Source of the DNA: a virus
Lineage: Duplodnaviria; Heunggongvirae; Uroviricota; Caudoviricetes
Length of the DNA: 64,000 bases
Virus record (IMG/VR): IMGVR_UViG_3300047202_000291
Strand: one strand, 5' to 3'
Made by a program: the position numbers and the translations under genes. Shown here one piece after another: positions 1 to 44,371 of this stretch. The notes below the pieces were generated by a model, which was given only the letters and a program-made list of their open reading frames with translations, was not told the origin of the DNA and ran no database searches. The stretch's first letter is position 1, and every line of letters begins with the position of its first letter.

Positions 1-3000
1 ATTAGTCCAGCCGGTATTTCTCAGGTCTTTGCTCTAGGTGATGAAGTAGCATATTCAGCACAAGTTCCAATAATATCAAATATTACTGAATATGGTGAAA
101 CCGCAAATAGCATAAATATAAGTTGGTTTGTTGATCAGCCAGTAGATAATAGAATGCAGATTGCTAAGAATCCTTGGATACTTGATGCTGCTTGGGCTAG
201 CAGAATTATTAATTATACTGAAACTTTTGAGCACATATATGCTGACACAGATACTTCGGTTCGCCTTTATGTTAGGCCCCCGTATTATGGTGGGATAGTT
301 AGTGTTGTTTGCTCAAATCCAGCATATAGCGCAAATTATTTAATTAATGATAGCGCGAGTCCTGTCGAAATTACTTTCGGGGATGTTAATGAGACAGATT
401 ACTATGATTGGACTATAACTTATATTTTGAATGATACTATACAATGGAATACGGGTAGACCGGCTTTCATGGTAGATAATTTAGATGCGGACACAACTTA
501 TTATTATAGGCTTTGGGCATACGGCCTCGGTGGGCTCAATACAACTCAGGACGGAAGCTTCACTTTAGGAACTCCTCCGGCGACACCTTTATCTGAGATT
601 CACAACTATACTGAGAATAGGCCCGATGAGCAGGTTATAGTCTGTGGTGAACTTACAGATATGAATAGCGAATCTTCAATAGATTGTTCAATTCAATATT
701 GGAACGAGGAATCAACTACCTTCGGGGAAACAACCGCAGATACCATGACCTCAACAGGAACATTCTGTAAGACAATTGATGTTAACTATGGTCACACTTA
801 TGGCTATAGAGCTAAATGTGCTGCCTCAACCACCGGTTATAGTGACGCATACTTTAACGAATTCATGGCAATTCAACCATTCTTTGCCGGCAATCCGATA
901 GAGGATGATCAGGATTATGAAGATAGGCAATATTGTCCTGCGGGTCCTGGAATAGAGCCTTGTTATGAACAGAGAGGATACCGCGAAGGTTCATTGCAGG
1001 AGGAAGATTGGATATGGATAGAGACAAATATTACTGATCAAGGTACTTTAACAGTTCATTGGTGGGATGATGGTTGGTCAACCTATGATATGACAAATGA
1101 CACCGATTCAGATATGAGATATTTGGAATTAACAGGTCTAGATTCTGATTGGCAGACATTTTATATAACGGGATCAGCAGATAATTTGGTTTTGAATTGG
1201 ACAAAGCCATCTATGATTCATTTGGTAAATCAGAATAGGACCGACGAATCAAAATATGTTGCATTCGGAGGAACTCCAACTGCCATTGATTATCAATTAC
1301 TCTATATGGATTCTCAAATATATGATATAAGCGCATATAGGTGGTGCATTGCAGCCGGTGGTTCTCTGTATGATTGCATGGGAGTTCAGTATTGGGGTGG
1401 TGGCTACGAAACTGGGATTCCTCCGTCTTTAAGCGGAACTTCTTATGATAGAGGTCAGCTTTTCAGAGGCGGTGTGATTAATGGTGAAATGTACGACACC
1501 GGGATTCTTACAGAAATTAGGGACACCGGCAAATCTCTTGGGGATGATGTTTATAATCAAAGGTACTGCTTCGCATTCACAGATTACTGGTGGGATTATT
1601 CAATTGTTCCAAGTAACAATATAACTAATTATTATTATCATTATTGGACTGAGAATGAGAAATATTCAGATTATCTTGGTCATAATCAAGATAGGTTATT
1701 TGATTATATATATTTGATGAGATTTGAATATGATGAGTTTAGCATGACGAGGGACTGGAAAGCCATAACTGGAACCACCCAATATGATGAAAATGTGGTT
1801 AAGACTGCGAGTGGTTCTAATTGGGGTACCTCAGCAGATCAAAGTTTGCTTGTTGGCTATGTGGGTGGATTCAATGTAGCAACCGATAAGGATCAGATTT
1901 ACAACTTTGGATTCTATACTGATGGAAGGTGGACAAATCAACAGTTCGGTAAGTATCAGCAGGCCTTCGTTATATTCAACCTGCCGGATAATGCGACTCT
2001 TCAGAGCATGGACAGCGATTCTGATAATTTGACAGATTATGATGAGTTGTATATATATTATACTAACCCGAAGAGCAATGACACTGATGAAGATGGTAGA
2101 GTGGATACATATGAGATTTTATATGATTATGACCCTAATTTGCCAGATTCTTGTGGCGTTGATGATAATGCTTGTGATTATTGTCAGAAATGTGTTTTAG
2201 GAACGTGTACTTTTGAGGCCGCCGATGAGGATGTGAAAGATGATTGTGACTTATATTTTGATGATTGTACAAATGCTTATACCTTGTTAGGGTCTAGTGG
2301 ATTCTGTGATGGTGCCGGAGATTGCGCTTACCATGATTTCGAAGCCAATGTTTCTATAGGAAAGATTTGTGTTGCTGGGCAGAATGTTAGTCCTTCGAAC
2401 AGCGTAAATTGCGGAATTTGGGCTGATTGTGTTGCCGGAACTACAAATACTAGCAGTACATATTTTGTTGGTTATGCCGGCGATGGTACAGCTACTTGTG
2501 ATGATACTGGTTGGGTTTATAGGGGTTGGTCTAATTTCACTATGCCTGCAGGACCAAGAGAATCCTTTGCATCAGCAGTCTTCGATGGAAAAATGTGGCT
2601 TTTTGGTGGAATTGATGCTAATCCGTCATGGAACGCTTATAATGATGTTTGGTCTTCTACTGATGGGATTAATTGGACTCTCGTAACTGATAATGCTAGT
2701 TGGTCTAAGAGAGATAATATGGTGGCAATTGTTTATGACAATAAGATGTGGATCATGGGCGGTTACACTATAACCGGTGTTGAAAATGATGTTTGGTATT
2801 CGACAGATGGTGCTAATTGGATTCTTGCGACCGAACATGCAAATTGGTCTGATAGATATGCTTTTGGGTTAGTTGTATTTAATGGTGCAATGTGGCTCAT
2901 AAGCGGAACTCCAACTGGCTATGCGTGGGATACTGATATTTGGAATTCTACCGATGGAATAAGTTGGAATCACGTAACTGATCAAGCTTGGCCTTATTAT

Positions 3001-4140
3001 GGAAGAGAGTATTTTGAAGTTGTTGTATTTAATAATACAATGTGGTTAATCGGAGGTCATCGGTTAGCTGGTAGTAATTGGTATTCTACGGATGGGGTTT
3101 CTTGGGCCTCTTATGATCCGCCAACAAATTATTGGGGTCAGGGAACTGTGGTGCTTGATGATAAAATATGGGTCACTGGAGGATATGTGTGGGGTGTGGG
3201 AACAAGATCAGATATGTGGTATTCTTCAAATGGATTAAATTGGATTGAATCTGAGTCTAATGCTCCTTGGGGCCCGAGAGTTTATCATGAATCATTAGCA
3301 TATGATGATAAAATATGGCTTTTTGGAGGATCGCCAGACGGTGGGGATTGGGCATATGATGACCTTTGGACTAATGAGCCACCGACATTAGATGTTACTT
3401 CAGGGTATGTCATAAATGTTACCGAGCATGCCGAAGTGTGTCAGGAGATCCTTATTACGGTAAATGTTACTGGGGTTACAACAGATCAGTCAAGCGTAAG
3501 TCCACTAGAAGGATCAACAGTTGATGTATTTTTTAATGTATTTTTAGAGAAGGTTCTTGGGGGGATAACTTCTTACAATATATCCGCAGTGTCTCCTTCA
3601 GGTGCAAGATACGCAGCAACCTGTAACTATACTTTATTTAACATGTCTTGTGTAGTGCCGATGCAGTATTATTATGAGCCGGGATTATGTGATGTGGATG
3701 TATTTGTTAGCGATAATAATGGAAGCGGTGCCCTTTATAAGGATGATTTATTTGATTATGGGTCACTCTTGGCGATGAGAAAAGATAGAGATTATATGGC
3801 TTTGACCGGATCATTTATTGGATTGAATAATGTGTCATTTGATATGCCTATTGATATGACTAATTCTGGGAATGAGAATATTACGGCCATAAAGCTGACG
3901 GCATATGACATTCCTGGGGCCGTTGTTCCTTCAAAGAAGATATTGGCATCTTATTTTAGGGCGGGAATAAGCCTGTCTGATTCAGTGCAGCTTGAGAATA
4001 GTGTCGAGAAGAACATACCCTTTGCATTAACTCCAGGTCCAAATGCAACTGCTGCCTTCGGGATGTGGGTCTCAGTTCCAGCAGATGCTTATCCGCAGGC
4101 TTATGTTTCGGTTATTCCCTGGCAAATAATATTTGAATAA
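1..4140 (+). CDS. Large surface/adhesin-like protein, 5'-partial (frame open from nt 1). Repeated ~47-aa beta-propeller (Kelch/BNR-like) units, Cys-rich module, DxDxDG Ca-binding-like motif, many N-x-S/T sequons
   Basis: No stop in frame from nt 1. About 9 repeats of W.STDG.NW...W..R...VF...MW..GG (nt ~2560-3400). Cys-rich CGVDDNACDYCQKC...; NPKSNDTDEDGRVD. Confidence 0.8.
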   Translation: MSPAGISQVFALGDEVAYSAQVPIISNITEYGETANSINISWFVDQPVDNRMQIAKNPWILDAAWASRIINYTETFEHIYADTDTSVRLYVRPPYYGGIVSVVCSNPAYSANYLINDSASPVEITFGDVNETDYYDWTITYILNDTIQWNTGRPAFMVDNLDADTTYYYRLWAYGLGGLNTTQDGSFTLGTPPATPLSEIHNYTENRPDEQVIVCGELTDMNSESSIDCSIQYWNEESTTFGETTADTMTSTGTFCKTIDVNYGHTYGYRAKCAASTTGYSDAYFNEFMAIQPFFAGNPIEDDQDYEDRQYCPAGPGIEPCYEQRGYREGSLQEEDWIWIETNITDQGTLTVHWWDDGWSTYDMTNDTDSDMRYLELTGLDSDWQTFYITGSADNLVLNWTKPSMIHLVNQNRTDESKYVAFGGTPTAIDYQLLYMDSQIYDISAYRWCIAAGGSLYDCMGVQYWGGGYETGIPPSLSGTSYDRGQLFRGGVINGEMYDTGILTEIRDTGKSLGDDVYNQRYCFAFTDYWWDYSIVPSNNITNYYYHYWTENEKYSDYLGHNQDRLFDYIYLMRFEYDEFSMTRDWKAITGTTQYDENVVKTASGSNWGTSADQSLLVGYVGGFNVATDKDQIYNFGFYTDGRWTNQQFGKYQQAFVIFNLPDNATLQSMDSDSDNLTDYDELYIYYTNPKSNDTDEDGRVDTYEILYDYDPNLPDSCGVDDNACDYCQKCVLGTCTFEAADEDVKDDCDLYFDDCTNAYTLLGSSGFCDGAGDCAYHDFEANVSIGKICVAGQNVSPSNSVNCGIWADCVAGTTNTSSTYFVGYAGDGTATCDDTGWVYRGWSNFTMPAGPRESFASAVFDGKMWLFGGIDANPSWNAYNDVWSSTDGINWTLVTDNASWSKRDNMVAIVYDNKMWIMGGYTITGVENDVWYSTDGANWILATEHANWSDRYAFGLVVFNGAMWLISGTPTGYAWDTDIWNSTDGISWNHVTDQAWPYYGREYFEVVVFNNTMWLIGGHRLAGSNWYSTDGVSWASYDPPTNYWGQGTVVLDDKIWVTGGYVWGVGTRSDMWYSSNGLNWIESESNAPWGPRVYHESLAYDDKIWLFGGSPDGGDWAYDDLWTNEPPTLDVTSGYVINVTEHAEVCQEILITVNVTGVTTDQSSVSPLEGSTVDVFFNVFLEKVLGGITSYNISAVSPSGARYAATCNYTLFNMSCVVPMQYYYEPGLCDVDVFVSDNNGSGALYKDDLFDYGSLLAMRKDRDYMALTGSFIGLNNVSFDMPIDMTNSGNENITAIKLTAYDIPGAVVPSKKILASYFRAGISLSDSVQLENSVEKNIPFALTPGPNATAAFGMWVSVPADAYPQAYVSVIPWQIIFE

Positions 4141-4339: not shown

Positions 4340-5254
4340 ATGAGGGGTTGGCATTATGAATCTCATAGGCATAGTCTTGCAGCCAAAGGCATAAAGACTT
4401 CTCAGCCAAAGCTTGCCAAGGTTCTCAGATCAGAAAATATCATCTTTGAGCCAAAATACGATGGCACGCGCATGATTCTTGAGAAGAAGGGTTCTGAGCT
4501 TACATTCATCAATAGGCGCGGTGTCGTAAAGAATGATACTTATCCTGAATTATATAATATTAATAAGAGCATCAAGGGCGATGTAATTCTCGATGGTGAA
4601 GTTGTCGTTCTAGATAAGGAGCATCCCTTTGGCAATTTTGAAAAGCTCGCAATGAGAGATAGGCTAAAAGATAAAGAGGAAATAGAGAAAAGATCCAAAA
4701 CCCTTCCATTGACTTATGTTGTTTTTGATATTCTGGAAAAAGACAGGCAAAAGGTGGCAGATTTGCCATTGTCCGAGCGGAAGAAGATTCTTGATAATGT
4801 GATTGCACAAGGAAAGAACATCAGAGAAATAGAGTTCTCAAATAAATCAAGCGAGATGTTGTCTAAAGTTAAGCAGGCAAAAGGAGAAGGAATTGTGCAA
4901 AAAGACATCAATTCTAAATATGCACCAGGTTCCACGAGGTCCTGGGAAAAATACAAGCTTCTTAAGACAAATGATGTGGCAATAATTGGTATCACTTTAG
5001 GGACGGGAAGAAGAAAAGGTTATTTTGGTGCATTAAAGATTGCAGTTAATACTCCAAAAGGTTTAAAACCTGTTGGAAAAGTCGGCACCGGATTCTCAGA
5101 CGCTGATTTAAAGGAGATAAAAAGTAGATTGGATCAAGGTGAAAAACTCGTTGCTCGAATTCAATATAGAAAAATAGGTAGTGCTGATCATTATATTGAA
5201 CCTCGTTTTCAGGCAATTCGAACAGATATTTCTCAAAGTGATACGCACGAATGA
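4340..5254 (+). CDS. ATP-dependent DNA ligase (small, viral-type) carrying the shared N-terminal GW.YESYRHSLAAKGIKT module
   Basis: Motif I EPKYDGTRM (KxDGxR), motif III VILDGEVVV, motifs V/VI GIVQKD...WEKYKLLK. SD AGGGTGAG upstream. Confidence 0.85.
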   Translation: MRGWHYESHRHSLAAKGIKTSQPKLAKVLRSENIIFEPKYDGTRMILEKKGSELTFINRRGVVKNDTYPELYNINKSIKGDVILDGEVVVLDKEHPFGNFEKLAMRDRLKDKEEIEKRSKTLPLTYVVFDILEKDRQKVADLPLSERKKILDNVIAQGKNIREIEFSNKSSEMLSKVKQAKGEGIVQKDINSKYAPGSTRSWEKYKLLKTNDVAIIGITLGTGRRKGYFGALKIAVNTPKGLKPVGKVGTGFSDADLKEIKSRLDQGEKLVARIQYRKIGSADHYIEPRFQAIRTDISQSDTHE

Positions 5255-5268
5255 AGGAGGAGATAAAA

Positions 5269-5382
5269 ATGGGAAAATTGGAAAAAGCATTGAATAAATT
5301 TGCAAAATTCACTTTTGTGAAGGCACCAAAGGCAGGTGTTAAGGCAGGGAATGTAGTCAGGAAAGGCTGGAAAAAGAAGTGA
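5269..5382 (+). CDS. Small Lys-rich hypothetical protein (37 aa)
   Basis: Strong SD GAAGGAGG 8 nt upstream of the ATG. Confidence 0.3.
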   Translation: MGKLEKALNKFAKFTFVKAPKAGVKAGNVVRKGWKKK

Positions 5383-5522
5383 TTCAAAAGTAGATTTATG
5401 GCTAAAAAAAAGGAGAAGCCGATACTTGAGGAATGGATTGAAATGATTGAGGATGATATAAAAAATACAGTTAAGGAGATTAAATATTTTATTGAGCATC
5501 CAAAAAACGAGAGGAGATTAAA

Positions 5523-6359
5523 ATGAAGGGTTGGTATTACGAATCTTATCGTCATAGTCTTGCAGCCAAAGGTATAAGGACAAATTGGGTGTTAATCAAT
5601 GAGAATCCGAGCTATAAGCGCATAAGAATCAATCGCGGATATAAAGATGTCGTCCAGGTAGATGCAAAGACTCTTAAAGAGCGTTTTGAGAAGGATAATA
5701 ATACTCCTCTTGCTTGGAAGCAATTAAGATTCGATCTTCTGAAAAACTGTGAGGAGTTTGATCAATATCCTGAGGTTGATATTCTTTCTTCTGGCAAAAT
5801 AGATTTTAATGATGGTCGTCATAGGGTTGCTGTGGCCGCAGCTCGTGGCGAGACAATCGAAATAGCAGTTAAAAATAAAGATAAATTTCTTGAGGCTTTC
5901 AGTAAGCATTCTTTTGCTGCAAAGCAGGATCCTTATGAATTTCAGGATAGCAATCAGGAGAAGATAGTTCATGCTGATTGGTGGGGTGAGCAACAATATG
6001 ATGCGAATCATAGGCCTCTTCCTTTGCTCTGGAAAGATAATGAGCTCAGATTTGTTCTTGAGGGCTCTGGCGATATTTTCAGGGAGTTCTCAATACATAA
6101 AGCGGATAACTGGTGGTTTGCTCAGAATTATATTGATGAGAAGGCAGCCCGCATTAAGAAATATCTGACTGATCCTTCTTTGGCGAATCATTCCGTCGGA
6201 GAGATAAATAAAGCAAAGCTTGCAGAGATTAGAAGGCTTTGGACAATTCAGCCTTACGAAACAGAGTTGCAGAAGAAAGCTATTGATCTGAACCTTGCGA
6301 TAATTGATAAGGACAATGAGAAGGCACTTTCAATCTTAAAGGAGGTTTCGAAAGTATGA
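5523..6359 (+). CDS. ParB-like nuclease domain protein with the shared N-terminal module
   Basis: ParB/Srx motif FNDGRHRVAVAAARGE. N-terminus MKGWYYESYRHSLAAKGIRT. Confidence 0.7.
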   Translation: MKGWYYESYRHSLAAKGIRTNWVLINENPSYKRIRINRGYKDVVQVDAKTLKERFEKDNNTPLAWKQLRFDLLKNCEEFDQYPEVDILSSGKIDFNDGRHRVAVAAARGETIEIAVKNKDKFLEAFSKHSFAAKQDPYEFQDSNQEKIVHADWWGEQQYDANHRPLPLLWKDNELRFVLEGSGDIFREFSIHKADNWWFAQNYIDEKAARIKKYLTDPSLANHSVGEINKAKLAEIRRLWTIQPYETELQKKAIDLNLAIIDKDNEKALSILKEVSKV

Positions 6360-7105
6360 ATCGTTACAAACCCCTTGGTTGGCGTTATGAATCATACAGG
6401 CATTCCTTAGCAGCCAAAGGCATCAAAACAAGGTATAAGGTGCCTCCGGCATGGAGAAATGTTAAGTATTATAAGGATAAGCCGTATGTTGTAACTGGTG
6501 TTGATAAGAAAGGTAGGGTTCAATATATTTATCCTGAATCTTTTTCTTCTGCAAGCAGTGAAAAGAAGTTTAATAGGATTGAGCGCTTTGAGAAGCAAGC
6601 ACCGGCTATAATCGATTCTGTAATGAAGGATGTTAAAAAAGGAGATAATCCCGAGGCCGAAGTTGTTTATACGATGTACAAAACTGGATTTAGGCCAGGT
6701 TCGGAGAATGATACAATGGCGGAGAAGAAGGCGTTTGGTGCATCAACTTTGCTTAAGGATCACGTTTCTGTGCGAAAAGATGATGTTAAGTTTAAATTCA
6801 TTGCTAAGAAAGGCGTTCCTGTTGAAAAAGACGTTAAGGATAAGCTTCTTGCAGATATAATTAAGAGGCGCATGCAAAGTAGACGGCTCTTTGATACCTC
6901 TGAAGGTCGTTTAAGGGCTTATTTTGATAAAAAGACCCAAGGTAGGTTCCAATTAAAGGACCTGAGGACTTTGAAGGCCTATGAGGTCGCTAAGGAGGCT
7001 GGTGGCGATAAGAAGGAGATAGCTGAACGCGTTTCAGAGGAGCTCAGCAATACGCCCGCAGTCGCGATAAGTTCTTATGTTCATCCGAGGCTGATTAATG
7101 AATAG
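6356..7105 (+). CDS. Type IB topoisomerase-like catalytic-domain protein (compact) with the shared N-terminal module
   Basis: YKTGFRPGSENDTMAEKKAFGASTLLKDHVSVRKDDVKFKFIAKKGV resembles the poxvirus-type TopoIB core (GccsLr.eHv...v.F.F.GK). C-terminal LRTLKAY is a possible catalytic Tyr. N-terminus GWRYESYRHSLAAKGIKT. Confidence 0.5.
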   Translation: MNRYKPLGWRYESYRHSLAAKGIKTRYKVPPAWRNVKYYKDKPYVVTGVDKKGRVQYIYPESFSSASSEKKFNRIERFEKQAPAIIDSVMKDVKKGDNPEAEVVYTMYKTGFRPGSENDTMAEKKAFGASTLLKDHVSVRKDDVKFKFIAKKGVPVEKDVKDKLLADIIKRRMQSRRLFDTSEGRLRAYFDKKTQGRFQLKDLRTLKAYEVAKEAGGDKKEIAERVSEELSNTPAVAISSYVHPRLINE

Positions 7106-7760
7106 ATTAAAGCCAATCGGTTGGAAATACGAAGGATATAGGCATAGTTTAGCAGCTCGAGGTATCAAAACTTCTTTTAAATTAAAATATGGAAAAGACA
7201 TTCCCGCGCAGCTTCATACTGGTTCAAAGGAATTTAAGGATATTAGCGAAGTGAAACAGCACCTCCCTTTTAAGCCAAGGGGCGGTTTTTGGACTTCGAG
7301 CTATAGGCATGATGCAGAGCCTGGATCTAAAAGTGATTGGCTTGATTGGGCATCCTCAGAAATGCCTGGGAAAGCCAGTAGTGAACACATGATTCTTAGG
7401 CCAATTCCAAATGCAAAGATATTTGAGATCGATGATGAAGAAGATATGAGATATTTGTTTGATAAATATGGAACACTTGTGAGCGGTATGCCCGATATTG
7501 ACTGGCAGAAACTCTCGCAGGATTATGATGGATTGCGTGTGACTGAGAATGCTGCACGCAAGTTTCATTTGAATTACGTTTCTATGGAGGATTTGATTAA
7601 AAAGAAGGGATTGAAAAGTCCTTTTGGAAAAGATCATTTTTTATCAGGAGTTACCTTAAATGCTTGGGACTCTGAAAGTACAATTTGGTTTAGGGATGTT
7701 TTCAAGAAGAAAACTCCCGTTGATATGAAAATAAATGCTGAAATGGATACCGGATATTGA
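7098..7760 (+). CDS. Hypothetical protein with the shared N-terminal module
   Basis: N-terminus MNRLKPIGWKYEGYRHSLAARGIKT; no other recognisable domain. Confidence 0.65.
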   Translation: MNRLKPIGWKYEGYRHSLAARGIKTSFKLKYGKDIPAQLHTGSKEFKDISEVKQHLPFKPRGGFWTSSYRHDAEPGSKSDWLDWASSEMPGKASSEHMILRPIPNAKIFEIDDEEDMRYLFDKYGTLVSGMPDIDWQKLSQDYDGLRVTENAARKFHLNYVSMEDLIKKKGLKSPFGKDHFLSGVTLNAWDSESTIWFRDVFKKKTPVDMKINAEMDTGY

Positions 7761-16598: not shown

Positions 16599-17450
16599 AT
16601 GCCAGAACTAATGCCGATGCTCTTGCAGGAAGTGGAATTCTCAGAGGATGTCTTTGAGAAATATAAAGACTATGTTTGGCAAGAGAAGGAAAATGGCGTG
16701 CGGGTTATGGTTCATATAAAAGACGGGAAGATTTCTGCAGTAAGAAATAGGCGAAATAATCCTGTCTTGCATTTGTATCCAGAACTAACTGCACTTGATT
16801 TTGGGAAAATTAGTGCTATCTTGGACGGCGAACTTGTTGTCTTTAAAAATAACAAGAGTGTTTTCTATGGTGGTATTAATCAAAGGGATAAGCTTTATTC
16901 AAAGGATTCTGTGGAGAAATTTCCAGTTACATTTGTGGCTTTTGATATGATTTTTCTTAATAAGGAAATTCTATTAGGTAAGCCACATAATGAGAGGTAT
17001 GAACTTTTGAATACTGGATTTCTTTCATATACTGGAAAGCACTTTGTAATCTCTGATAATATTGCTGACCCAAAGAAATACTGGGCTGAGCACGTTATTC
17101 CGGAAGGAAGAGAAGGCTTGGTGCTTAAGGATCCCAAAAGCAAATATGAGCCAAGCCAAAGGTCTTGGTCTTGGCTGAAGCTTAAGAATTATAAGGTTGC
17201 TGAAGTGATTGTCGATAGCATTGATGTCAATGTTAAGGGCAATAAGATTACTGGAAAGGCAACTATTAATTCAGAAGTGTGTATTGTTGAGTGCCAATAC
17301 GGCGGCGTGTATAATATTCAGTTAGGCGATAAGCTTCCTGTCGAATATCTTGATATTGTCGGCGGGAAACTTATTCAGCCACATAAGCCAAGAAAATGGA
17401 AGCCAGAGGTGATTCAAAATGCCAGTGAAAATGAAAGTTCCAAAGATTGA
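16599..17450 (+). CDS. ATP-dependent DNA/RNA ligase (second copy; KxNG motif-I variant)
   Basis: Motif I KENGVR, motif III ILDGELVVF, motifs V/VI LVLKDPKSKY...WLKLK. Confidence 0.7.
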   Translation: MPELMPMLLQEVEFSEDVFEKYKDYVWQEKENGVRVMVHIKDGKISAVRNRRNNPVLHLYPELTALDFGKISAILDGELVVFKNNKSVFYGGINQRDKLYSKDSVEKFPVTFVAFDMIFLNKEILLGKPHNERYELLNTGFLSYTGKHFVISDNIADPKKYWAEHVIPEGREGLVLKDPKSKYEPSQRSWSWLKLKNYKVAEVIVDSIDVNVKGNKITGKATINSEVCIVECQYGGVYNIQLGDKLPVEYLDIVGGKLIQPHKPRKWKPEVIQNASENESSKD

Positions 17451-18583: not shown

Positions 18584-18670
18584 GAAAAGATAGGGTTGGT
18601 AGCCTGCGGTGTCCCGTGTATGGTGGGCCAGCCCATTCTTTTCTTTTTAAAGAAAATTGGAGGCGATAAG

Positions 18671-19111
18671 ATGCCAGATGTTGAAATGCAACCAGCAGAG
18701 CAACAGACAAAGTTGAAGGAGATGGGAGTTCATCAGATAAAGCTTGAGAAATATCTTTCTGAGGACGGGGAAGAGCTCATATGCAAAATGAGCCTGAATG
18801 ATAGCTTGAAGAACTTGCTTTCTGCTTTTATTGTTAAGGGTCAATATTCGACTGAAGATTATGATGGGCAGAAAATCAAGAGGTTTAAGATAAAATCTGT
18901 CTTGAGGAACTCTCAGAATTGGAACGGCTCGTTTGTTTATTTCTTCACAAAAGAGTGTGTCGAAGACGGCGCATATGAGATGAAATTTACAAATGTAAGT
19001 GCATTCCAGAACTTTGTTTCGGGTCTTAAGTATTTTAAGGATTTGATTAGGATAATGGAAGAGCTCAAGCGAAAGGAAACTATGGTTGTTTCATATAAGC
19101 TTGAAAGGTGA
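18671..19111 (+). CDS. Hypothetical protein
   Basis: Internal ATG with GGAGGCGATAAGATG context; the track start at 18596 is non-ATG. Confidence 0.6.
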   Translation: MPDVEMQPAEQQTKLKEMGVHQIKLEKYLSEDGEELICKMSLNDSLKNLLSAFIVKGQYSTEDYDGQKIKRFKIKSVLRNSQNWNGSFVYFFTKECVEDGAYEMKFTNVSAFQNFVSGLKYFKDLIRIMEELKRKETMVVSYKLER

Positions 19112-20166
19112 TTAGATTGAAGCCATCAATTGTATGTGGGATTGAAATTGAGATGGAGTATGATGCTCACCTGATGAAAATCAAGAAATCCAATTATCAT
19201 GAGGAATATGATGATAAGGAGGATTATTTTTGGGTCGGTGATAGCGAGAAGTTTATTGCCGAACGGGATGGTTCGCTTGGAGTCTACAAGTTTGCTGAGG
19301 GGGATTGTGTTGAGTTGATTAGTATTCCGTTTCTTATTGAAGACGGAATGCATATCGTTAAGGATTTTGCCAAGCAATTTGGAGCAATGATTGGAAATAA
19401 ACTTGACGAGGTAATCTGCTTTAATGATAGCACAGGAGCTCACATTCATCTAAGTTTGCTTAATCCGGAGAAAGAAGGATATACGAATATTGATTTAAGA
19501 GACCACATTAGGCATAAGTTCAAGGGAAAGCCGATGTTCTTTAGGGATATTATTGGTATATCTATTCTTAACAAGATTAAGGAGAGGCTTATTGAACGTG
19601 CGAAAGCGATTCTTTCAGATGATGCATTTGCTAAATGGTCTTCTGCTTTGGTTAGAGGTTTTGCTGCAAAGATTGAGGAAGAAAATCAGATGTACGAGGA
19701 TAGGCGAAGCGAATGGAATTTGACTTTGCATAATAGGATCGAATATCGGGGATTCAATCTGCGTGGGATTACTACTTGGGGGGAATTCTTTAAAATATAT
19801 GAACTCTTATTTTTAATAATTAAGGAAGTCATATATGAAGAGTTCGAAAGCAAAAAACCTTTCTTTAATCAATCGGTATATGAGCTTTTACCAGATGATT
19901 GCGCTGGTTTGTTTCCAAATGCATTACTTAATTATACAATTGTAGGTGGAAAAATACTTTCAGAGAATGCTGCCGTCTTTGATGTAGGGTTGGAACAATC
20001 ACATAAGAGAAGAAGATATGAAATTGAACTTCCTAATGCTCTTGAACCAGAGGTGAATTTTGTGATTGATATGAATTCATCGCCAGAATGGAATGCAGAT
20101 TGGATTGATGACAGGCCATATTGGGATGAAGATAAGGAACCAGATGAGGACGAAGGAGGTAATTAA
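19108..20166 (+). CDS. Amidoligase-like enzyme (Amidoligase_2/GCS2-like)
   Basis: GIEIEMEY, RDGSLG, ELISIP, STGAHIHLSL. Same motif order as the paralog at 21407. Confidence 0.45.
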   Translation: MIRLKPSIVCGIEIEMEYDAHLMKIKKSNYHEEYDDKEDYFWVGDSEKFIAERDGSLGVYKFAEGDCVELISIPFLIEDGMHIVKDFAKQFGAMIGNKLDEVICFNDSTGAHIHLSLLNPEKEGYTNIDLRDHIRHKFKGKPMFFRDIIGISILNKIKERLIERAKAILSDDAFAKWSSALVRGFAAKIEEENQMYEDRRSEWNLTLHNRIEYRGFNLRGITTWGEFFKIYELLFLIIKEVIYEEFESKKPFFNQSVYELLPDDCAGLFPNALLNYTIVGGKILSENAAVFDVGLEQSHKRRRYEIELPNALEPEVNFVIDMNSSPEWNADWIDDRPYWDEDKEPDEDEGGN

Positions 20167-21042
20167 ATGTGTCATATAAATGTAATTTTTAAGAAAGATA
20201 AGGTGCCAGATAAGAAATTAAGTAGGTATATGAATGTAGTGAGTTATTATAGTTATTTGGCTAATGATGACGGCGAAGGGTATGTTGGTATCGACGCTGA
20301 GAAAGGAAAAGAGATTTCTTTTGGGAAGGGATTTAACAAGTTTTACTTTGTGAATCCATATTGGTTTCTTGCAACGCACCAAAGGATTGCTACTTCTGGA
20401 AAAGGGGTCGGTAACACCCATCCGCACGAAACAAAGGACTTTATTTTGATGCACAATGGGATCATAAGTTCTCTTGGTTCAGATGAGAAATCAGATTCAA
20501 AAGTCTTTGCCGATATGTTGCAGGAGGCTTTTGATAAGCAGGAAGAGGATAAGAAGGACTTGACTTTGGCAATAAGGGAAGTCACCAAGCAGGTAAATGG
20601 AACCTATTCTATTCTTATAGTTGAGAAGGCGACTATGCGTGTTCTTTACTTTAAGGAGCGCATTACAGATATGTATAAGATTGAGAACAAGGATTGGTTA
20701 GTCATGAGTACAGATGAGAAGAATGTCAAGTTTGCAAAATTCTGGTTAGGTATAAAAGGGAAAGTAAAATCAGTTGGGGAGCTTTATATTTATGATGTCT
20801 TGGATAATTTCAAAAAGATAAGGAAATTCGAGGAGCAGCCATATGTTTACGCAGAGTCGAAATCTTCCTCAATTTCAGGATATGGGCGAACTTATTATTA
20901 TGATGAGGATTATCATTATACTGGCAAAATCGTTAAGTCAGCATATGATGAGGAATGGATTAAGGACGATAGGGTAAGTGGCATAGAGAAATCTATTGAG
21001 GATGAGCGAAGGGAAAGATTTGAAAAGTATGACTTCTTTTAA
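20167..21042 (+). CDS. Class-II (Ntn) glutamine amidotransferase domain protein
   Basis: N-terminal MC (Cys nucleophile). RIATSGKGVGNTHPH...LMHNGIIS matches GlmS/PurF R.ATHG....N.HPH...HNGII. Confidence 0.7.
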   Translation: MCHINVIFKKDKVPDKKLSRYMNVVSYYSYLANDDGEGYVGIDAEKGKEISFGKGFNKFYFVNPYWFLATHQRIATSGKGVGNTHPHETKDFILMHNGIISSLGSDEKSDSKVFADMLQEAFDKQEEDKKDLTLAIREVTKQVNGTYSILIVEKATMRVLYFKERITDMYKIENKDWLVMSTDEKNVKFAKFWLGIKGKVKSVGELYIYDVLDNFKKIRKFEEQPYVYAESKSSSISGYGRTYYYDEDYHYTGKIVKSAYDEEWIKDDRVSGIEKSIEDERRERFEKYDFF

Positions 21043-21062
21043 GTAAGAGGTCGGGGTAGAAA

Positions 21063-21395
21063 ATGGAGCCGATAATCTTTGATGAGGGTGATGGTTATCG
21101 TACCAAGGCATACAGGCTTGAAGGTTCTTATGCAAAATTCTTTGGTAACGCTTTTGAATTTGTAGTTATCGAATGGTCACATCCAAATTATGGCTATTGG
21201 GCTGATGCTATGTTCTGGTGGCGTTCAATGCACACTGGTAAATGGCAGCCAGTGCCGATTGTTTCTTGGTGTGCTGGATACGATACACCAGAAGAATTTC
21301 TGGAGGATTTTCCTGTCTTTAAGAAACTCTTTAAGGGCATTGAGGAACGAGATTCGAGTGCAATAAAAAGGGCACTCGATAAGATAATTAAGTAA
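21063..21395 (+). CDS. Hypothetical protein within the amidoligase cluster
   Basis: ATG ORF on the + strand. Confidence 0.55.
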   Translation: MEPIIFDEGDGYRTKAYRLEGSYAKFFGNAFEFVVIEWSHPNYGYWADAMFWWRSMHTGKWQPVPIVSWCAGYDTPEEFLEDFPVFKKLFKGIEERDSSAIKRALDKIIK

Positions 21396-21406
21396 GAGGT
21401 TTTGTA

Positions 21407-22129
21407 ATGGATGTATCTGAAATGGCAATCGGGTATGAGCTTGAGGCTGGGTTAAAGGAGAATAGCAGCGTTAGGAATGTTGCGAGGCAACTTGGATTTC
21501 GTATCGGGGACGATGGTAGCGTATGTTGTGATGATATGGATACTTGGGAAGCTGAGCTTAATTCTCCCATTTATCAGGGGCAGAAAGGCAAAAAGCTGTT
21601 ATTTTTTGAGCTAAAGAAGCCAGATGTGGATAATAAGATTTTTTCAGACTTTGAGCAGTTGTCGCATTATGTGAAGGAGATAAATGATTCTATGGGTCTT
21701 CATATTCATGTTTCTTTCAAGAATAAAAAATATTATCAGTATTTATTCTCTTTCGCTTTCGTGAAATTCTTTCAGAAGGAATATATGAGGCATTTTAAGA
21801 AGCCTGTTGAACGAAATCGAGCAAATAATGAATATTGTGAGTTCTATGATGATGGGGATATTTATGAGTTCAAGGATATAAAGGATGAGGCTCTTGGTTC
21901 TCACGATAAATGTGATGCAAGAAATCACTCGGTTAATTTTAATTCTTATCCCGTTCATAAGACAATTGAGTTCAGGATTTTTCCAGCGACTAAGCGGTCG
22001 AAAGACTTTAAGAGATATGTTAATTTTGTGACTGGTTGTGTCACCAGTTTTATTTCTGAGGTCGAGAAGGAAAAAGTCTTTGAGCAGTTGATGGAACAAA
22101 GGATGAAGAAGATTAAAGTGAATATATAA
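21407..22129 (+). CDS. Amidoligase-like enzyme, paralog of the 19108 gene
   Basis: GYELEAG, GDDGSV, AELNSP, MGLHIHVS. Confidence 0.45.
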   Translation: MDVSEMAIGYELEAGLKENSSVRNVARQLGFRIGDDGSVCCDDMDTWEAELNSPIYQGQKGKKLLFFELKKPDVDNKIFSDFEQLSHYVKEINDSMGLHIHVSFKNKKYYQYLFSFAFVKFFQKEYMRHFKKPVERNRANNEYCEFYDDGDIYEFKDIKDEALGSHDKCDARNHSVNFNSYPVHKTIEFRIFPATKRSKDFKRYVNFVTGCVTSFISEVEKEKVFEQLMEQRMKKIKVNI

Positions 22130-26182: not shown

Positions 26183-26782
26183 ATGAAACCGAAACTCAGT
26201 ATAAAGTATTATCAGAACGCAGACAAGAATCATCAGGATTCTTTTTGGTATGATGGAGATATTGCATTGCTTAAATATAAGAATCGAGAAGTGCTTGTAG
26301 TCGCTGCAGGCGACATAAGGATTCACAATAAAAGAGGTGAGTTGGTCTATGATTGTAAGCCCCGCAATTCAGGATTTTCATTCAAGCTTGAGCAAGATAA
26401 AGATTTGTATAAGATAGGTAATAATTATGATGATGATTTCTATTGGGAAAATAACAACTGGTTCGAGCTCTTTTATAAGAACAAAGGAGATTCTAATTGG
26501 AATGATATTTTAGGTGATGTTTATTTTGACTATGGTGTTGTAATAAAAGCGGCGAAAGATGCAATTAAGGATGATAAATGGTGGAATGAAACCTGGAATA
26601 AAGCTACCTGTCTTGAGTGTAAGAAGGAGTTTATTCAGGAAAGGGACATTCAGCTTTGTGATGTTTGCATAAAGAAGTTCAATCTTGACAAGCTCTGGAA
26701 AGACCACGACAATAATAAAATTGATGCTCTTGATTTTAATGAGTCTAAAAAGATACGAGAAAAATATAGGGTGAAGAAATAA
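26183..26782 (+). CDS. Hypothetical protein with a C-terminal CxxC...CxxC motif
   Basis: ATG after GAGGT. Confidence 0.55.
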   Translation: MKPKLSIKYYQNADKNHQDSFWYDGDIALLKYKNREVLVVAAGDIRIHNKRGELVYDCKPRNSGFSFKLEQDKDLYKIGNNYDDDFYWENNNWFELFYKNKGDSNWNDILGDVYFDYGVVIKAAKDAIKDDKWWNETWNKATCLECKKEFIQERDIQLCDVCIKKFNLDKLWKDHDNNKIDALDFNESKKIREKYRVKK

Positions 26783-27933
26783 TGGAAGTAACACACGAAC
26801 AGTTGGCTATGCTTATTGAAGAGCACCGAAGGGCAGGGCTTCCTTTGTTTGTTGATGGTGCAACAGGCATCGGTAAATCTGAAGCTGGTATTAAGAGCAG
26901 TAAGATGTATGCTGATAGAATAAGTAGGCAATGGGTTGCTTGGGTTGATCTATCTAATTTAGATAGGCATAAGTTTCTTGATGACAAGGAGATTGTGAAG
27001 GTTCATTTATTCGTTGACATAAGGACGGCTCTTTTGGAACCGACTGACCTTCTTGGTTTGCCGTTTAAGGATGAGCGTGGTTATGTTGCTTGGTTGCCGA
27101 CTCTTCTTTTCAAGATTCTGAGTTTGCCTTCAGTTTCAGCTACTATATTCTTTGACGAATTCAATTTAGGCAGTTTGATGGTCATGAAATCCAGTTATCA
27201 GCTTATTCTTGATAAGGCCATAGGGGAAGTCAAGCTTGGTAAGGATGTTACAATTCTTGCAGCAGGAAACAGGATTGAGGATCGTGCTCACGTTACAGAG
27301 TCTCCAGCTCCATTAAACAATAGGTTTAGCCATTGCACTTTGCTTTGTCCAACTCCAGATGAGTGGATTATGTATAATCTTAAATCAGAATATCCTGAGC
27401 CAAGGCTCGTTTCTTTCATTAAGTTCAAGCCTAAATATATCTTTGACTTTAAGCCTAACCAAAAGGAGAAAGCATTTCCTACTCCGAGGGCGATTCAGCA
27501 GTTGGCTATGTTGCTTAAGGGAAAAGATGAGATGAATGAGCTCGATAATATGACCATGCTCGCCCAGGCGAAATGTGGTGATGCTTTCGGTGCAGAGTTT
27601 CAATCCTTCTTGCGTCTTACGAGGAAGGTTAATGTTGATGAGATTCTAGAGCATCCTGAAAAGGTGCATGAATTTGAAAAACAGCTTGACTTGAAATATT
27701 CATTAATCTCTGGGGTTGCCGTAAGGGTGAAGCAGGACTTCAATAAGATGGAACAGGCCCTCAAAGTTATAGCCGAGCTTGAAGATGAGTATGGTGTCTT
27801 TTTATTGAGAATGATTATTGATATTTGCGGTATGAAGGTGTTGTCCGTCCTTGAGCATAGTAAGACTTGGGAAACCAGGCTCTATGATAAGTTTAAGGAC
27901 ATATTAAGCACGAGATTTGCGCAGGTGAGTTAA
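26782..27933 (+). CDS. MoxR-family AAA+ ATPase
   Basis: Walker A DGATGIGKSE, Walker B IFFDEFN, sensor AAGNR, PLNNRF arginine-finger motif. Confidence 0.8.
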   Translation: MEVTHEQLAMLIEEHRRAGLPLFVDGATGIGKSEAGIKSSKMYADRISRQWVAWVDLSNLDRHKFLDDKEIVKVHLFVDIRTALLEPTDLLGLPFKDERGYVAWLPTLLFKILSLPSVSATIFFDEFNLGSLMVMKSSYQLILDKAIGEVKLGKDVTILAAGNRIEDRAHVTESPAPLNNRFSHCTLLCPTPDEWIMYNLKSEYPEPRLVSFIKFKPKYIFDFKPNQKEKAFPTPRAIQQLAMLLKGKDEMNELDNMTMLAQAKCGDAFGAEFQSFLRLTRKVNVDEILEHPEKVHEFEKQLDLKYSLISGVAVRVKQDFNKMEQALKVIAELEDEYGVFLLRMIIDICGMKVLSVLEHSKTWETRLYDKFKDILSTRFAQVS

Positions 27934-30967: not shown

Positions 30968-32218
30968 ATGGTTGACGAAAATCTCCTTAAAAGCATCAAG
31001 CGTTGTAAGATTGCTTTGCAAAGAGACTATCCTTTTTTCTCAGATCTGCTTTTCTTTATTACTGTGAAAGAGGGTAATGATGAAGTTCCGACAGCTAAGA
31101 TTGATATTCATGGTAACTTGACTTATAATTCGAAGTTTATGGCAGGTCTGAATGATGATGAGAAGAAAGTAGTGATTTGTCATGAAACACTTCATTCGGG
31201 TCTTTTGCATCTCGCAAGGGGTCACAGTATTGTGCAGTCCCCAGAATATTGGGAAATATATAATATTGCCGCAGATGCCGTGACTAATTATATTCTTGCC
31301 GAGAATGGCTTTATGTTTTCTAAGAAGATAACTTCAATCATTCCAGATGTATATGGGAATAATGTTCAGCTCAAGACAGAAAGTGGGACTCTACTCTATA
31401 CTGTTGAAAAGATTAAGGAGAAGACCGTTGAGAAGGTATTTCATGAATTGTGTAAGAATCTCCCGATTACTTATATTAAGGTTCATATAGTCGGTGCTAA
31501 AGGAGATGGATCCGGCATAAAGAGATTCGATATTCATGGCTTTGGCGAAGGCAAAGAGGCTTCTCAAAAAGCAGAAAAGGAATGGAAGCAAAGGCTCATA
31601 AATGCAGTTGCCCGTGCAAAAAGTATAGGTAAGCTTCCTTCAGGAATAGATCGATATGTCGATAAGATTCTTGAGCCGAAAGTTAGATGGCAGGATATTC
31701 TTTATAGGTTCATTACAGAGCAGATGCCTCATGATTATACATATAGGCGCCCTCATAAGCGTTCAGAAGTTCTTGGCTATTATGTTCCGAGTTATGTCAA
31801 GGAGATGCTCAGGGTTGCTTCATTTATAGATACCTCAGGCTCTATTTCACAGCAAGCTATTGCTGAGTTTAAGGCAGAGAATGTCGGCATAGCTCGTGCC
31901 TTTGAGTCCGTCCAGATTCACCTTGGCTATATTGATGTTCAAGTTCACGATGTTCTTGAGGTCACCAATGGCAATACAGATAAGATTGTTGATTTTGTGC
32001 CAAAAGGTGGCGGTGGAACAGACATGCGTAATGTATTTACCTGGCTCGATAGGAATCTTCCAGATGCCGAGCTTGTTGTTATTTTCACAGATGGTTACAC
32101 GCCTTGGCCTAAGCCAGAGCAAATCTGTCAAAGAAAAGTCCTTTGGCTAGTTAATACTAATGAAAAAGTTCCTTCGGGAATCGGTGAGGTGATTCGATAT
32201 GACAGTGAACAGCTTTGA
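30968..32218 (+). CDS. VWA-domain protein with an N-terminal HExxH putative metallopeptidase domain (DUF2201-like); MoxR partner
   Basis: HETLHSGLLH (HExxH). MIDAS DTSGS...GGGTD...TDGY. Confidence 0.75.
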   Translation: MVDENLLKSIKRCKIALQRDYPFFSDLLFFITVKEGNDEVPTAKIDIHGNLTYNSKFMAGLNDDEKKVVICHETLHSGLLHLARGHSIVQSPEYWEIYNIAADAVTNYILAENGFMFSKKITSIIPDVYGNNVQLKTESGTLLYTVEKIKEKTVEKVFHELCKNLPITYIKVHIVGAKGDGSGIKRFDIHGFGEGKEASQKAEKEWKQRLINAVARAKSIGKLPSGIDRYVDKILEPKVRWQDILYRFITEQMPHDYTYRRPHKRSEVLGYYVPSYVKEMLRVASFIDTSGSISQQAIAEFKAENVGIARAFESVQIHLGYIDVQVHDVLEVTNGNTDKIVDFVPKGGGGTDMRNVFTWLDRNLPDAELVVIFTDGYTPWPKPEQICQRKVLWLVNTNEKVPSGIGEVIRYDSEQL

Positions 32219-43932: not shown

Positions 43933-44358
43933 ATGGAAAAAACAAATATTAAGAAAAAAAGAAAAGAACTTGTTGTTCCAAAGCCTCCAGTCATACATTC
44001 AGGGACAACTCCTCTGAGCGTAGCAAATTCTTCGCAAATAAAATCATCTAATCGATTAACCGTGGGTCAATGGGCTTTTGTGTTTTTGATTGCAGCTTGT
44101 ATTCTATTGTTATATTTAGTGGTTACTGGCGGGTTCATTCATATGAAAGAAGCTTCGGCTAATAAGAGGGTGTCTGTTTATGGCGAGAATGGGGCGCTCA
44201 ATGAAATTTCATGTGCAGATATTTGCGATAGCCATAATTATGTTACTATTGGAGTTGCACACGGTGTCGAGACTAATCGTAATCCAGTATGCTTTTGTGT
44301 TGAGAGTATAGCATATGAAAAGAAAACAGAAAATAAAATATGGACATTTACCATATAA
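43933..44358 (+). CDS. Membrane-anchored Cys-containing protein
   Basis: ATG at 43933. Confidence 0.5.
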   Translation: MEKTNIKKKRKELVVPKPPVIHSGTTPLSVANSSQIKSSNRLTVGQWAFVFLIAACILLLYLVVTGGFIHMKEASANKRVSVYGENGALNEISCADICDSHNYVTIGVAHGVETNRNPVCFCVESIAYEKKTENKIWTFTI

Positions 44359-44371
44359 GCGAGGTGGAAAA

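Follow-up and report, generated by a model that had tools for sequence, protein, structure and literature searches.

Phage amide-bond cassettes and the locus at 18671-22129

A 'peptide-bond (peptidoglycan modification) cassette' is said to have been recognized in phages by Iyer et al. in 2009 and Hardies et al. in 2013. In its published form it comprises a GGCT, a GATase, two amidoligases and an ATP-grasp protein in phiEco32, LUZ24, tf, PA11 and RIO-1 (PMC5498523, PMC3890496, PMC6256558), and a cassette of this type is also carried by Cronobacter phage A24. Firmicute phages (e.g. Bacillus phage 031MP004) encode pairs of PF12224 and AIG2/GGCT proteins. An organization in which two ATP-dependent amide-bond ligases surround a glutamine-hydrolysing enzyme is already known from many phages; in the locus described here it has a constant small companion, U146.

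This locus, at positions 18671-22129 of the window (i.e. the entire 64-kb stretch of DNA analysed), is an authentic, though highly divergent, version of the gene cassette known from many phages. As in the phiEco32/LUZ24/tf/PA11/RIO-1-type cassettes, two amidoligases of the glutamine synthetase (GS) fold, A and D, and a class-II amidotransferase, B, are encoded among the early/replication genes of a tailed phage, and the GGCT and ATP-grasp members of those cassettes also recur in distant relatives of the window module. In contrast, the 64-kb window lacks the ATP-grasp, the GGCT and the PF14395 (COOH-NH2_lig type 2) ligase of these cassettes: neither A, D nor any member of the A family matches PF14395, and an hhalign comparison of the A family with the COOH.NH2 ligase of phage A24 was not significant. 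Furthermore, A is too divergent to be recognized by Pfam, and B has 291 aa as against 486-660 aa for the GATases of the phiEco32-type cassettes. The amidotransferase of phage A24 is nevertheless homologous to B (tblastn 26% identity, E 2e-4; profile E 2e-11), whereas U146 bears no similarity to the A24 ORF of ~190 aa that occupies the corresponding place. With respect to the Firmicute phage pairs, D belongs to the same amidoligase family, its best matches among cultured phages being these Bacillus phage proteins (profile E 1e-18), and GGACT genes are present in three relatives of the window locus (L001, L018 and L019); however, the partner in those pairs is a cyclotransferase, whereas D is linked to a GAT-II, a divergent second ligase and U146. 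Neither the 50,697 deposited phage genomes searched nor IMG/VR yielded a relative.

Two amidoligases and a class-II amidotransferase

A (19108..20166, + strand, 352 aa) is, by family-HMM, hhalign, AF2 and Foldseek comparisons, a divergent amidoligase with a GS-type catalytic fold and a predicted ligase activity. Its translation may start at a TTG at 19117, giving MKPS... as in its homologs. Residues 1-250 constitute the catalytic core, and residues 254-352 a disordered acidic tail ending in DEGGN. The core carries the motifs GIEIEME (11-17), ERDGS (52-56), VELISIP (68-74) and GAHIHLS (110-116), and the residues E13, E15, E17, E52, D54, S56, E69, H112, H114, R199, N204, E212 and R214 are invariant across the A family. 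D (21407..22129, + strand, 240 aa), the second ligase, is a bona fide amidoligase of the canonical Amidoligase_2 type (PF12224 at 4e-11, 43.7 bits, cut-off 22; phrog_2443 'amidoligase enzyme' at 2.7e-12), likewise with a predicted ligase activity. The counterparts of the A motifs in D follow one another as they do in A: GYELEAG (9-15), GDDGS (34-38), AELNSP (49-54) and GLHIHVS (97-103); nearly all of the 16 homologs of D match PF12224, with E11, E13, D36, S38, E50, H99, H101, N177, E188 and R190 being invariant. The ordered motif sets that the first-pass annotation had read in the two ORFs are thus present in both.

Whereas a Pfam search readily places D above the PF12224 cut-off, A on its own returns no Pfam match even at E<=1, and just 2 of 10 members of its family reach E 0.022 against Amidoligase_2; the homolog of A in L020 does score above the cut-off of that profile (24.3 vs 22). 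Pairwise BLASTP between A and D aligns the HIH motif only (E 0.003). At the level of families the resemblance is beyond chance, in agreement with the earlier suggestion that A and D are paralogs: hhalign aligned the A family (10 sequences) with the D family (17 sequences) over 194 columns (probability 96.6%, E 6.8e-10), and the D-family HMM recovered members of the A family with E-values from 1.4e-12 (the L011 homolog) to 7.6e-4, including A of the window at 2.7e-4. The AF2 model of A (pTM 0.70; core pLDDT 70-95) retrieved in Foldseek searches top viral matches named 'Amidoligase enzyme'. The acidic, His and Arg residues shared by A and D (GxExE, DGS, E..SP, HxH and E.R) are predicted to be metal and ATP ligands, given that their order matches that of the metal and phosphate ligands in GS, a member of the GS/gamma-glutamylcysteine ligase/PafA-Dop carboxylate-amine ligase superfamily. 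A is nevertheless a distant member of this assemblage, with only ~250 ordered residues, no equivalent of the N-terminal beta-grasp domain of GS, identities of 8-17% and no sequence-level PDB matches.

B (20167..21042, + strand, 291 aa) is a stand-alone class-II amidotransferase-like protein, of predicted Ntn type and with an intact predicted glutaminase site, as indicated by profiles, alignment to PDB structures and conserved residues. The MC start and GlmS/PurF-like signature previously noted in it are borne out, its sequence containing QRIATSGKGVGNTHPHETKDFILMHNGII. The GAT core occupies approximately residues 1-215, after which comes a low-complexity tail rich in Tyr, Asp and Glu, with no fused synthase or acceptor domain. 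NCBIfam profiles recovered glmS (E 5e-9, partial, residues 70-163), purF (8e-4) and, weakly, EgtC (0.084); as B has nothing but the GAT part of that profile, its glmS score falls far short of the equivalog cut-off. The match of B to Pfam GATase_6 likewise falls below the cut-off (E 0.0065, 16.9 bits vs 27), but 7 of 8 family members match this profile and the L020 homolog exceeds the cut-off (29.3 vs 27). B aligns to GlmS/GFAT structures across the R..NxHP..HNG motifs, with Cys2, Arg73, Asn97-Gly98 and Asp110, which are conserved in the B family, as the equivalents of Cys1, Arg73, Asn98-Gly99 and Asp123 of GlmS. Full-length homologs conserve MC[HN]IN (7 of 7 aligned), HQR, HNG and SD[ST]; those of L018 and L020 begin with MCNIN, whereas a non-ATG start in L019 gives an ORF beginning with LCNIN. 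The enzymatic assignments made at the outset, A and D as amidoligases and B as a class-II amidotransferase, are correct.

In MurT/GatD, GlmS, PurF and AsnB a stand-alone or modular glutaminase is similarly combined with an ATP-dependent, carboxylate-activating partner. However, GlmS, PurF and AsnB have the acceptor domain in the same chain, which B lacks, and MurT/GatD combines a Mur ligase (MurT) with a glutaminase of the class-I GAT type (GatD), unlike the putative pairing of a class-II enzyme with the GS-fold A. To our knowledge no GS-fold partner has been described for a class-II GAT.

U146 and the conserved unit of the module

A hairpin resembling a terminator, GGTGGGCCAGCCCATT with a T-run after it (18622..18647, + strand; a consensus match only, from a pattern scan), lies in the gap before U146 and probably delimits the transcription unit on its upstream side. 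U146 itself (18671..19111, + strand, 146 aa), recognized by its homologs beside those of A and B, has a GGAGG preceding its ATG. Its stop codon overlaps the GTG start of A (GTGA) and the ATG of B directly abuts the stop codon of A, a packing that fits coupled translation.

The comparison of related loci establishes that the conserved unit is U146 with A and B, rather than A, B and D as the cluster had originally been outlined; the three genes of that outline are real, with U146 having been missed and D and C being restricted to close relatives of the window lineage. Seven independent, divergent metagenomic phage lineages have U146, A and B side by side, in L014 with the order U146-B-A. Indeed, A adjoins B in every lineage examined, and U146 homologs adjoin both in each of them (L001, L004, L008, L010, L011, L014, L018, L019 and L020), making U146 their most tightly linked, obligate partner. 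D, in contrast, is not beside U146-A-B in L010, L011, L012, L014 or L018-L020, and L021 pairs a D-type relative with a B-family GAT-II. The 110-aa, Trp-rich ORF C (21063..21395, + strand), situated between B and D, is lineage-specific: genes of 110-114 aa, likened to it by position and size, occupy the same place in L004, L007 and L008, phmmer found no homolog in L001 or the distant relatives, and there was no match in Pfam, PHROG, NCBIfam or PADLOC. Other enzymes accompany the unit in some relatives: in the distant L018 and L019 a GGACT lies directly beside it and ATP-grasp ligases follow 0.5-2.4 kb downstream, and L001 has a GGACT at a distance of 6 kb. This set of the module, a gamma-glutamyl cyclotransferase and an ATP-grasp enzyme has the composition of the phiEco32/LUZ24/RIO-1-type cassette.

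Searches among 1.84 billion proteins recovered 47 representative homologs of U146 at E<=1e-3. U146 has no match in Pfam, PHROG, PADLOC or PDB sequences; its single-sequence AF2 model (pLDDT 43) was unusable. Arg71 and Phe92 are invariant in the family, with no invariant Lys, Glu or Cys in the alignment to mark an acceptor site. One could conceive of U146-A-B as a protein-tagging or amidating machine with U146 as carrier or substrate, comparable to Pup with its GS-fold ligase PafA and deamidase Dop. Here a carboxylate on or through U146 would be ligated or amidated by A, with glutamine as the nitrogen donor via B. U146 is always present, shows no enzyme-like motifs and usually ends in a few acidic residues, features that would be compatible with such a role, which we nevertheless regard as quite unlikely. 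Were it true, U146-A-B would be the first demonstrated case of a GS-fold ligase cooperating with both a class-II amidotransferase and a protein partner dedicated to it.

Functional implications of the module

The module had initially been placed after a DNA-enzyme-rich region and connected with DNA hypermodification or anti-restriction chemistry. Two DNA ligases and a topoisomerase IB are indeed encoded nearby, but this content is that of ordinary replication and repair. The notion that the enzymes build amide-linked hypermodifications on phage bases or nucleotides to counter restriction draws on this location and on the co-occurrence of amidoligase and amidotransferase Pfam domains with 5-HMUDK and aGPT-Pplase in viral contigs (Lee et al. 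2021; PMC8989533). However, a Pfam scan of essentially all ORFs of >=55 aa in the 64-kb window detected no thymidylate-synthase-like hydroxymethylase (dUMP/dCMP), 5-HMUDK-type kinase, aGPT-Pplase, TET/JBP, DpdA/TGT or QueC domain. Precomputed Pfam annotations of the flanks of the related loci in seven lineages (extending to +/-10 kb on contigs long enough) likewise contain no hypermodification genes. The DNA-modification kinases and DpdA-like enzymes that might have accompanied such a pathway are hence absent from the window and these annotated flanks, as are the enzymes that would supply a base or attach a group to it. The 5-hmdU source, 5-HMUDK and aGPT-Pplase that typify thymidine hypermodification clusters (Lee et al. 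2018/2021) are missing from both, and the window lacks the TGT-like DpdA and the QueC of 7-deazaguanine modification (DpdA with QueC/Gat-QueC), B itself having no QueC domain in Pfam. Moreover, the genes that travel with the module in distant relatives specify peptide and amino-acid enzymes (GGACT, ATP-grasp). A role in DNA modification is consequently unsupported and appears highly improbable, with the proviso that the window covers 64 kb of a genome of >116 kb, so that DNA-modification genes could lie elsewhere in it.

The module is most likely to be involved in ATP- and glutamine-dependent amide formation on a peptide, protein or metabolite. More specifically, we tentatively favor, at somewhat less than even confidence, a divergent and reduced phage amide-bond cassette with U146, A and B at its core, in which a carboxylate activated by A is amidated via B on a target other than DNA. 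A would use ATP and Mg2+ to phosphorylate the substrate carboxylate, which by analogy with every characterised enzyme of the fold would most likely be the gamma-carboxyl of glutamate, whether as the free amino acid or within a peptide or protein. B would hydrolyse glutamine at its N-terminal Cys, and the ammonia, which we infer to be transferred to A within a complex, would convert the activated carboxylate to an amide; were an amine the nucleophile instead, a gamma-glutamyl-type isopeptide would result. U146 could be the obligate third subunit, as an adaptor, specificity factor or substrate, and D might perform a second, independent ligation in the window lineage. The target would be a peptide, protein, cell-wall precursor or small metabolite. 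Observations in keeping with this proposal are the family and fold assignments of A and D, the intact glutaminase site of B without an acceptor domain, the coupled gene packing, the adjacency of U146-A-B in seven lineages together with the L021 pairing, the GGACT and ATP-grasp genes matching the published cassette, and the lack of hypermodification genes in the window and flanks. Counting against it, we know of no characterised GS-fold enzyme that takes ammonia from a class-II amidotransferase, and a search of the literature yielded no biochemical data for any member of the cassette.

The glutamine-binding residues of B do not discriminate between glutaminases and gamma-glutamyl hydrolases of the EgtC kind. 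B could alternatively be a Cys-Ntn amidohydrolase resembling EgtC, removing or trimming gamma-glutamyl groups, with A (and D) joining the gamma-carboxyl of glutamate to an amine carried by a peptide, protein or metabolite. The GGACT of related phages would then also remove the gamma-glutamyl group, by cyclisation to 5-oxoproline, and this group would serve temporarily for protection or activation. Precedents for such transient gamma-glutamylation are the EgtA/EgtC and PuuA/PuuD pathways and the biosynthesis of butirosin (BtrG). The Pfam description of Amidoligase_2, which reportedly names the partner a 'glutamine amidotransferase-like thiol peptidase', would favor a hydrolase, as do the weak EgtC match of B and the GGACT genes that adjoin the triad in L018 and L019 and lie close to it in L001. 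The GATase of the phage cassette has also been listed as a degradative enzyme, and treated as a partner of the GGCT in that capacity (PMC5498523), which speaks against the amidation that we favor. However, A and B are tightly coupled in the window lineage even though it lacks a GGACT, and B aligns better with the glutaminase domains of GlmS/PurF than with EgtC. Furthermore, a coupled ligase and hydrolase of the same bond would be futile without intermediate steps, and no enzymes for these were found in the window. Such a cycle is possible but doubtful.

Either chemistry, amidation or a gamma-glutamyl cycle, could act on the stem peptides of peptidoglycan, thereby blocking superinfection, a role that has been proposed for the phiEco32/RIO-1-type cassette, whose enzyme set the module shares (PMC5498523, PMC6256558, PMC10580990). 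Stem peptides, with their gamma-linked D-Glu and amidated iso-Gln, the latter formed by MurT/GatD (PMC3267633), would be chemically suitable targets. Nonetheless, for every phage this role is a hypothesis in the literature, no Mur-ligase-like or cell-wall-binding domains are present in U146, A, B, C or D, and neither A nor U146 detectably resembles its counterpart in phage A24. We consider a cell-wall substrate unlikely.

In Phage-ZRK32 the same gene set has been interpreted as auxiliary metabolic genes (PMC10945688), and the GS/gamma-glutamylcysteine ligase-like fold of A would be consistent with a contribution to host nitrogen or amino-acid metabolism through synthesis of glutamine, glutamate or a glutathione-like compound. 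This appears very improbable for the window module: A and D are far removed from the housekeeping enzymes, with no NCBIfam match, a size much smaller than that of GS and no counterpart of the domain found at the N terminus of GS. A phage-specific substrate is instead favored by the confinement to phage contigs and by U146 as an obligate partner peculiar to phages.

Two amidoligases flanking a predicted class-II amidotransferase

The two ligases A (19108-20166, 352 aa) and D (21407-22129, 240 aa) and the amidotransferase B between them (20167-21042, 291 aa) lie exactly where the first-pass annotation had placed them. As it had also proposed, A and D share both an ordered set of motifs (G.E.E, DGS, EL.SP and G.HIH.S) and a common ancestry. 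The expected Pfam assignments held in full only for D, which scores 43.7 bits against the Amidoligase_2 cut-off of 22 and additionally matches PHROG 2443 'amidoligase enzyme'; B gives only a weak match to GATase_6, and A on its own has no match in Pfam, PHROG or NCBIfam. Pairwise BLASTP of A with D likewise aligns only the HIH motif. Family alignments were assembled for A (A1, 10 sequences), D (A2, 17 sequences) and B (A3, 8 sequences), and hhalign comparison of A1 with A2 recovered a relationship with a probability of 96.6% (E 6.8e-10 over 194 columns). The D-family HMM directly retrieves members of the A family, including a homolog from the related metagenomic phage locus L011 (1.4e-12) and the A protein of the window itself (2.7e-4), and a distant A homolog from another such locus, L020, by itself exceeds the Amidoligase_2 cut-off. 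An AlphaFold2 model of A (pTM 0.70) has its ordered core over residues 1-250, followed by an acidic tail without order (residues 254-352), and a Foldseek search initiated with it matched viral proteins named 'Amidoligase enzyme'; PDB sequence searches with the A- and D-family profiles yielded only chance-level matches. Thus, the alignment, HMM, model and Foldseek evidence confirms that the resemblance between A and D is beyond chance.

B begins with MC and contains QRIATSGKGVGNTHPHETKDFILMHNGII. Its residues 70-163 match the glutaminase domain of NCBIfam glmS (E 5e-9), the PurF glutaminase domain is also matched, and B aligns with the human and Escherichia coli GlmS/GFAT structures across the R-x-A-T-x-G...N-x-H-P...H-N-G block. 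GATase_6 is also matched by seven of the eight members of the B family. The nucleophile Cys2 is retained in all full-length homologs together with Arg73, Asn97-Gly98 and Asp110, the equivalents of Arg73, Asn98-Gly99 and Asp123 of GlmS. These features bear out the earlier description of B as a GlmS/PurF-type protein with an N-terminal Cys, and on sequence grounds make it a predicted class-II Ntn amidotransferase. B displays no acceptor or synthase domain, and after about residue 215 it continues into a tail rich in Tyr, Asp and Glu.

Long tails predicted to be disordered, and strongly acidic or Tyr-rich in composition, terminate both A (19870-20166, residues 254-352) and B (20810-21042). That of A ends in ...WDEDKEPDEDEGGN, with the EGGN/EGDD elements kept in close relatives, while the L020 homolog ends in DDDDEEEDD. 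These tails could serve as docking or self-modification sites.

A core module with a co-inherited small protein

The A, B and D families are rare, being represented by 9, 7 and 16 clusters respectively in 5.8 billion proteins. Four loci with close relatives of A (L001, L004, L007 and L008; 43-94% identical) are collinear with the window, and show the order DNA ligase, ORFs of 69, 102, 210 and 146 aa, A and B, with D further downstream. Judged by position, L004, L007 and L008 have the 110-aa ORF C between B and D, and in L001 its place is taken by three other small ORFs. On more distant contigs (A 33-36% identical) both D and C are missing, and a homolog of the 146-aa upstream protein, termed U146, is present in every one, in the order U146-A-B in L010 and L011/L012 and U146-B-A in L014. 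When 1.84 billion representatives were searched exhaustively with phmmer, 47 relatives of U146 were recovered, and in the three with long contigs U146, A and B are again consecutive, as confirmed by HMM. In L018 this triad is preceded by a gamma-glutamyl cyclotransferase (GGACT) and a 58-aa ORF, in L019 by a GGACT alone, and in L020 by JAB and ThiF genes and two small ORFs. Since D and C are missing from the distant relatives and U146, A and B occur together in all examined, the core module consists of the latter three, with D being a lineage-specific second ligase and C a lineage-specific ORF. U146, a previously unannotated small protein, is thus co-inherited with the ligase and the amidotransferase in every lineage examined.

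In the window, the U146 gene (18671-19111) begins at an ATG that follows a terminator-like hairpin and GGAGG. The U146 stop overlaps the GTG start of A (GTGA), and the stop of A abuts the ATG of B. U146 has no match in Pfam, PHROG, PADLOC or PDB, and a PDB search with its family profile gave only chance matches. Arg71 and Phe92 are its only invariant residues, and a single-sequence model (pLDDT 43) was of too low quality to be used in searching for its fold. The idea that U146 is a tag comparable to Pup or ubiquitin, with a conserved C-terminal residue, was also considered; its C-terminus is not conserved, which leaves this only as a low-probability case.

As a separate observation, the JAB peptidase, the ThiF/E1-like enzyme and the two small ORFs (81 and 65 aa) directly upstream of U146-A-B in L020 (2692-4371) look like a possible ubiquitin-like conjugation set adjoining the amidoligase module.

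Relationship to published cassettes and potential functions

Cassettes combining amidoligases and amidotransferases range across podoviruses used in therapy (LUZ24-like phages), marine phages and archaeal viruses. To our knowledge, they are among the most widespread phage gene sets still without a tested function. Descriptions of amidoligases paired with amidotransferases in phages go back to Iyer et al. 2009, according to the passages of PMC10580990, PMC11706807 and PMC11318856 that refer to it. The published cassette comprises a gamma-glutamyl cyclotransferase, a glutamine amidotransferase, a gamma-glutamyl amidoligase, a second amidoligase and an ATP-grasp enzyme, and is reported to be conserved in phiEco32, 7-11, PA11, tf, MR299-2, LUZ24, PaP3, CW02 and RIO-1 (PMC5498523), as well as in UFV-P2 (PMC3890496) and PhiM6 (PMC6256558). 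In Cronobacter phage A24 it is laid out as COOH.NH2 ligase, hypothetical protein, Amidoligase_2, GATase and RimK-like protein, and in Bacillus phage 031MP004 an amidoligase is paired with a gamma-glutamyl cyclotransferase (GGCT).

In contrast to the published cassette, the cluster in the window lacks the ATP-grasp enzyme, the GGACT and the PF14395-type ligase (queries from related loci recovered neither ATP-grasp nor GGACT anywhere in the 64 kb); its amidotransferase is much shorter, and its ligase A is too divergent for detection by Pfam. Its relatives carry two of these missing members: a GGACT is present in L001, L018 and L019, and in L018 and L019 the triad is followed after 0.5-2.4 kb by ATP-grasp ligases. 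Hence, the cluster is a reduced, highly divergent form of the known phage cassette, and represents a minimal version of it. Further, in L021 a B-family amidotransferase is paired with a D-type amidoligase, indicating that B-type amidotransferases pair with two different amidoligase subfamilies. Only one feature is new, namely U146 as a strictly co-inherited partner, and no counterpart of it was found in A24; hhalign comparisons of the U146 and A families with the corresponding A24 ORFs were not significant, the A24 side being a single sequence, which limits the comparison. The 50,697 deposited phage genomes gave no DNA-level match to the 3-kb cluster, nor any tblastn match to A, U146 or a distant homolog of A, and in IMG/VR 48 stretches fitted the pattern taken from the alignment of the A family, of which none was confirmed; the cluster was thus found in no cultured phage among these records and in no IMG/VR contig in the A-family scan.

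A literature search found no experimental work on any cassette member. The roles proposed in print are all conjectural: they range from changes to peptidoglycan or superinfection exclusion, through secondary metabolites and nitrogen metabolism (PMC10945688), to a part, not further specified, in clusters for thymidine hypermodification (PMC8989533). A role in DNA hypermodification or anti-restriction had also been suggested for the present cluster. Pfam scans of essentially all window ORFs of at least 55 aa recovered no enzyme for making or decorating hydroxymethyl-pyrimidines or 7-deazaguanines, and none is annotated in the flanks of the related loci. The co-travelling genes are instead amino-acid and peptide enzymes, leaving the DNA-modification inference unsupported. 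PADLOC gave no matches, and thus no tie to known defence systems. The finding by itself overturns nothing and offers no support for a new DNA modification.

Our preferred, though tentative, reading, drawn from the anatomy of the cluster, is that it uses ATP and glutamine for an amidation or a ligation. A would activate a carboxylate, by family precedent most likely the gamma-carboxyl of glutamate, to an acyl-phosphate. B, which has no acceptor domain of its own and is translationally coupled to A, would provide ammonia from glutamine, U146 would be an obligate adaptor or substrate, and D would carry out a second ligation. On the main alternative, which is somewhat less probable, B is an EgtC-like gamma-glutamyl amidohydrolase that, along with the GGACT of related phages, strips gamma-glutamyl groups installed by A or D; the conserved residues of B do not separate an ammonia donor from such a hydrolase. 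With only three proteins, U146, A and B, the core module lends itself to biochemical reconstitution, and its substrate could at last come to light in this way.

Genomic setting

The window has the appearance of a segment from the genome of a large tailed phage: all its sizeable ORFs are on the plus strand, its GC content is about 38% with constantly positive GC skew, and its gene content is phage-like, with two ATP-dependent DNA ligases, a topoisomerase IB, HNH endonucleases, MazG and a MoxR-type ATPase with a DUF2201 VWA/metallopeptidase protein. Twelve tRNA genes (Leu, Cys, Met, Tyr, Asp, Glu, Pro, Gly, two Arg, Phe and His; 59416-62979) form an array in which two HNH endonuclease ORFs (60824-61285 and 62209-62736) are interspersed; here the local GC content rises to 0.42-0.44 and the skew falls.

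The two DNA ligase genes lie within 12 kb of each other, with one (4340-5254) encoding adenylation and C-terminal OB domains and the other (16599-17450) only the adenylation domain. The former is the first of four successive proteins over 4340-7760, followed by 5523-6359, the topoisomerase IB-like protein (6356-7105) and 7098-7760, that open with a shared N-terminal motif of about 20 residues, GW.YE.(Y/H)RHSLAA(K/R)GI(K/R)T. This motif is absent from every other ORF of the window and the related loci examined, and could be a common targeting, packaging or interaction tag. The largest ORF (154-4140) encodes a protein of 1328 aa that carries Kelch repeats and is rich in Cys in its middle region; it may have a structural role or take part in host interaction. 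The MoxR-type AAA ATPase (phrog_1297) and the DUF2201 protein (26782-27933 and 30968-32218) form a frequent phage pair. A LemA-family protein (44315-44965) and an SPFH/Band_7 protein (45766-46734) occur amid several small predicted membrane proteins, in what appears to be a membrane-associated gene block. Further downstream are the MazG pyrophosphohydrolase (51858-52235), a transglutaminase-core-like protein (54143-54817), a weak HIRAN-domain match (56114-56458) and a GtrA-like membrane protein (57989-58408).
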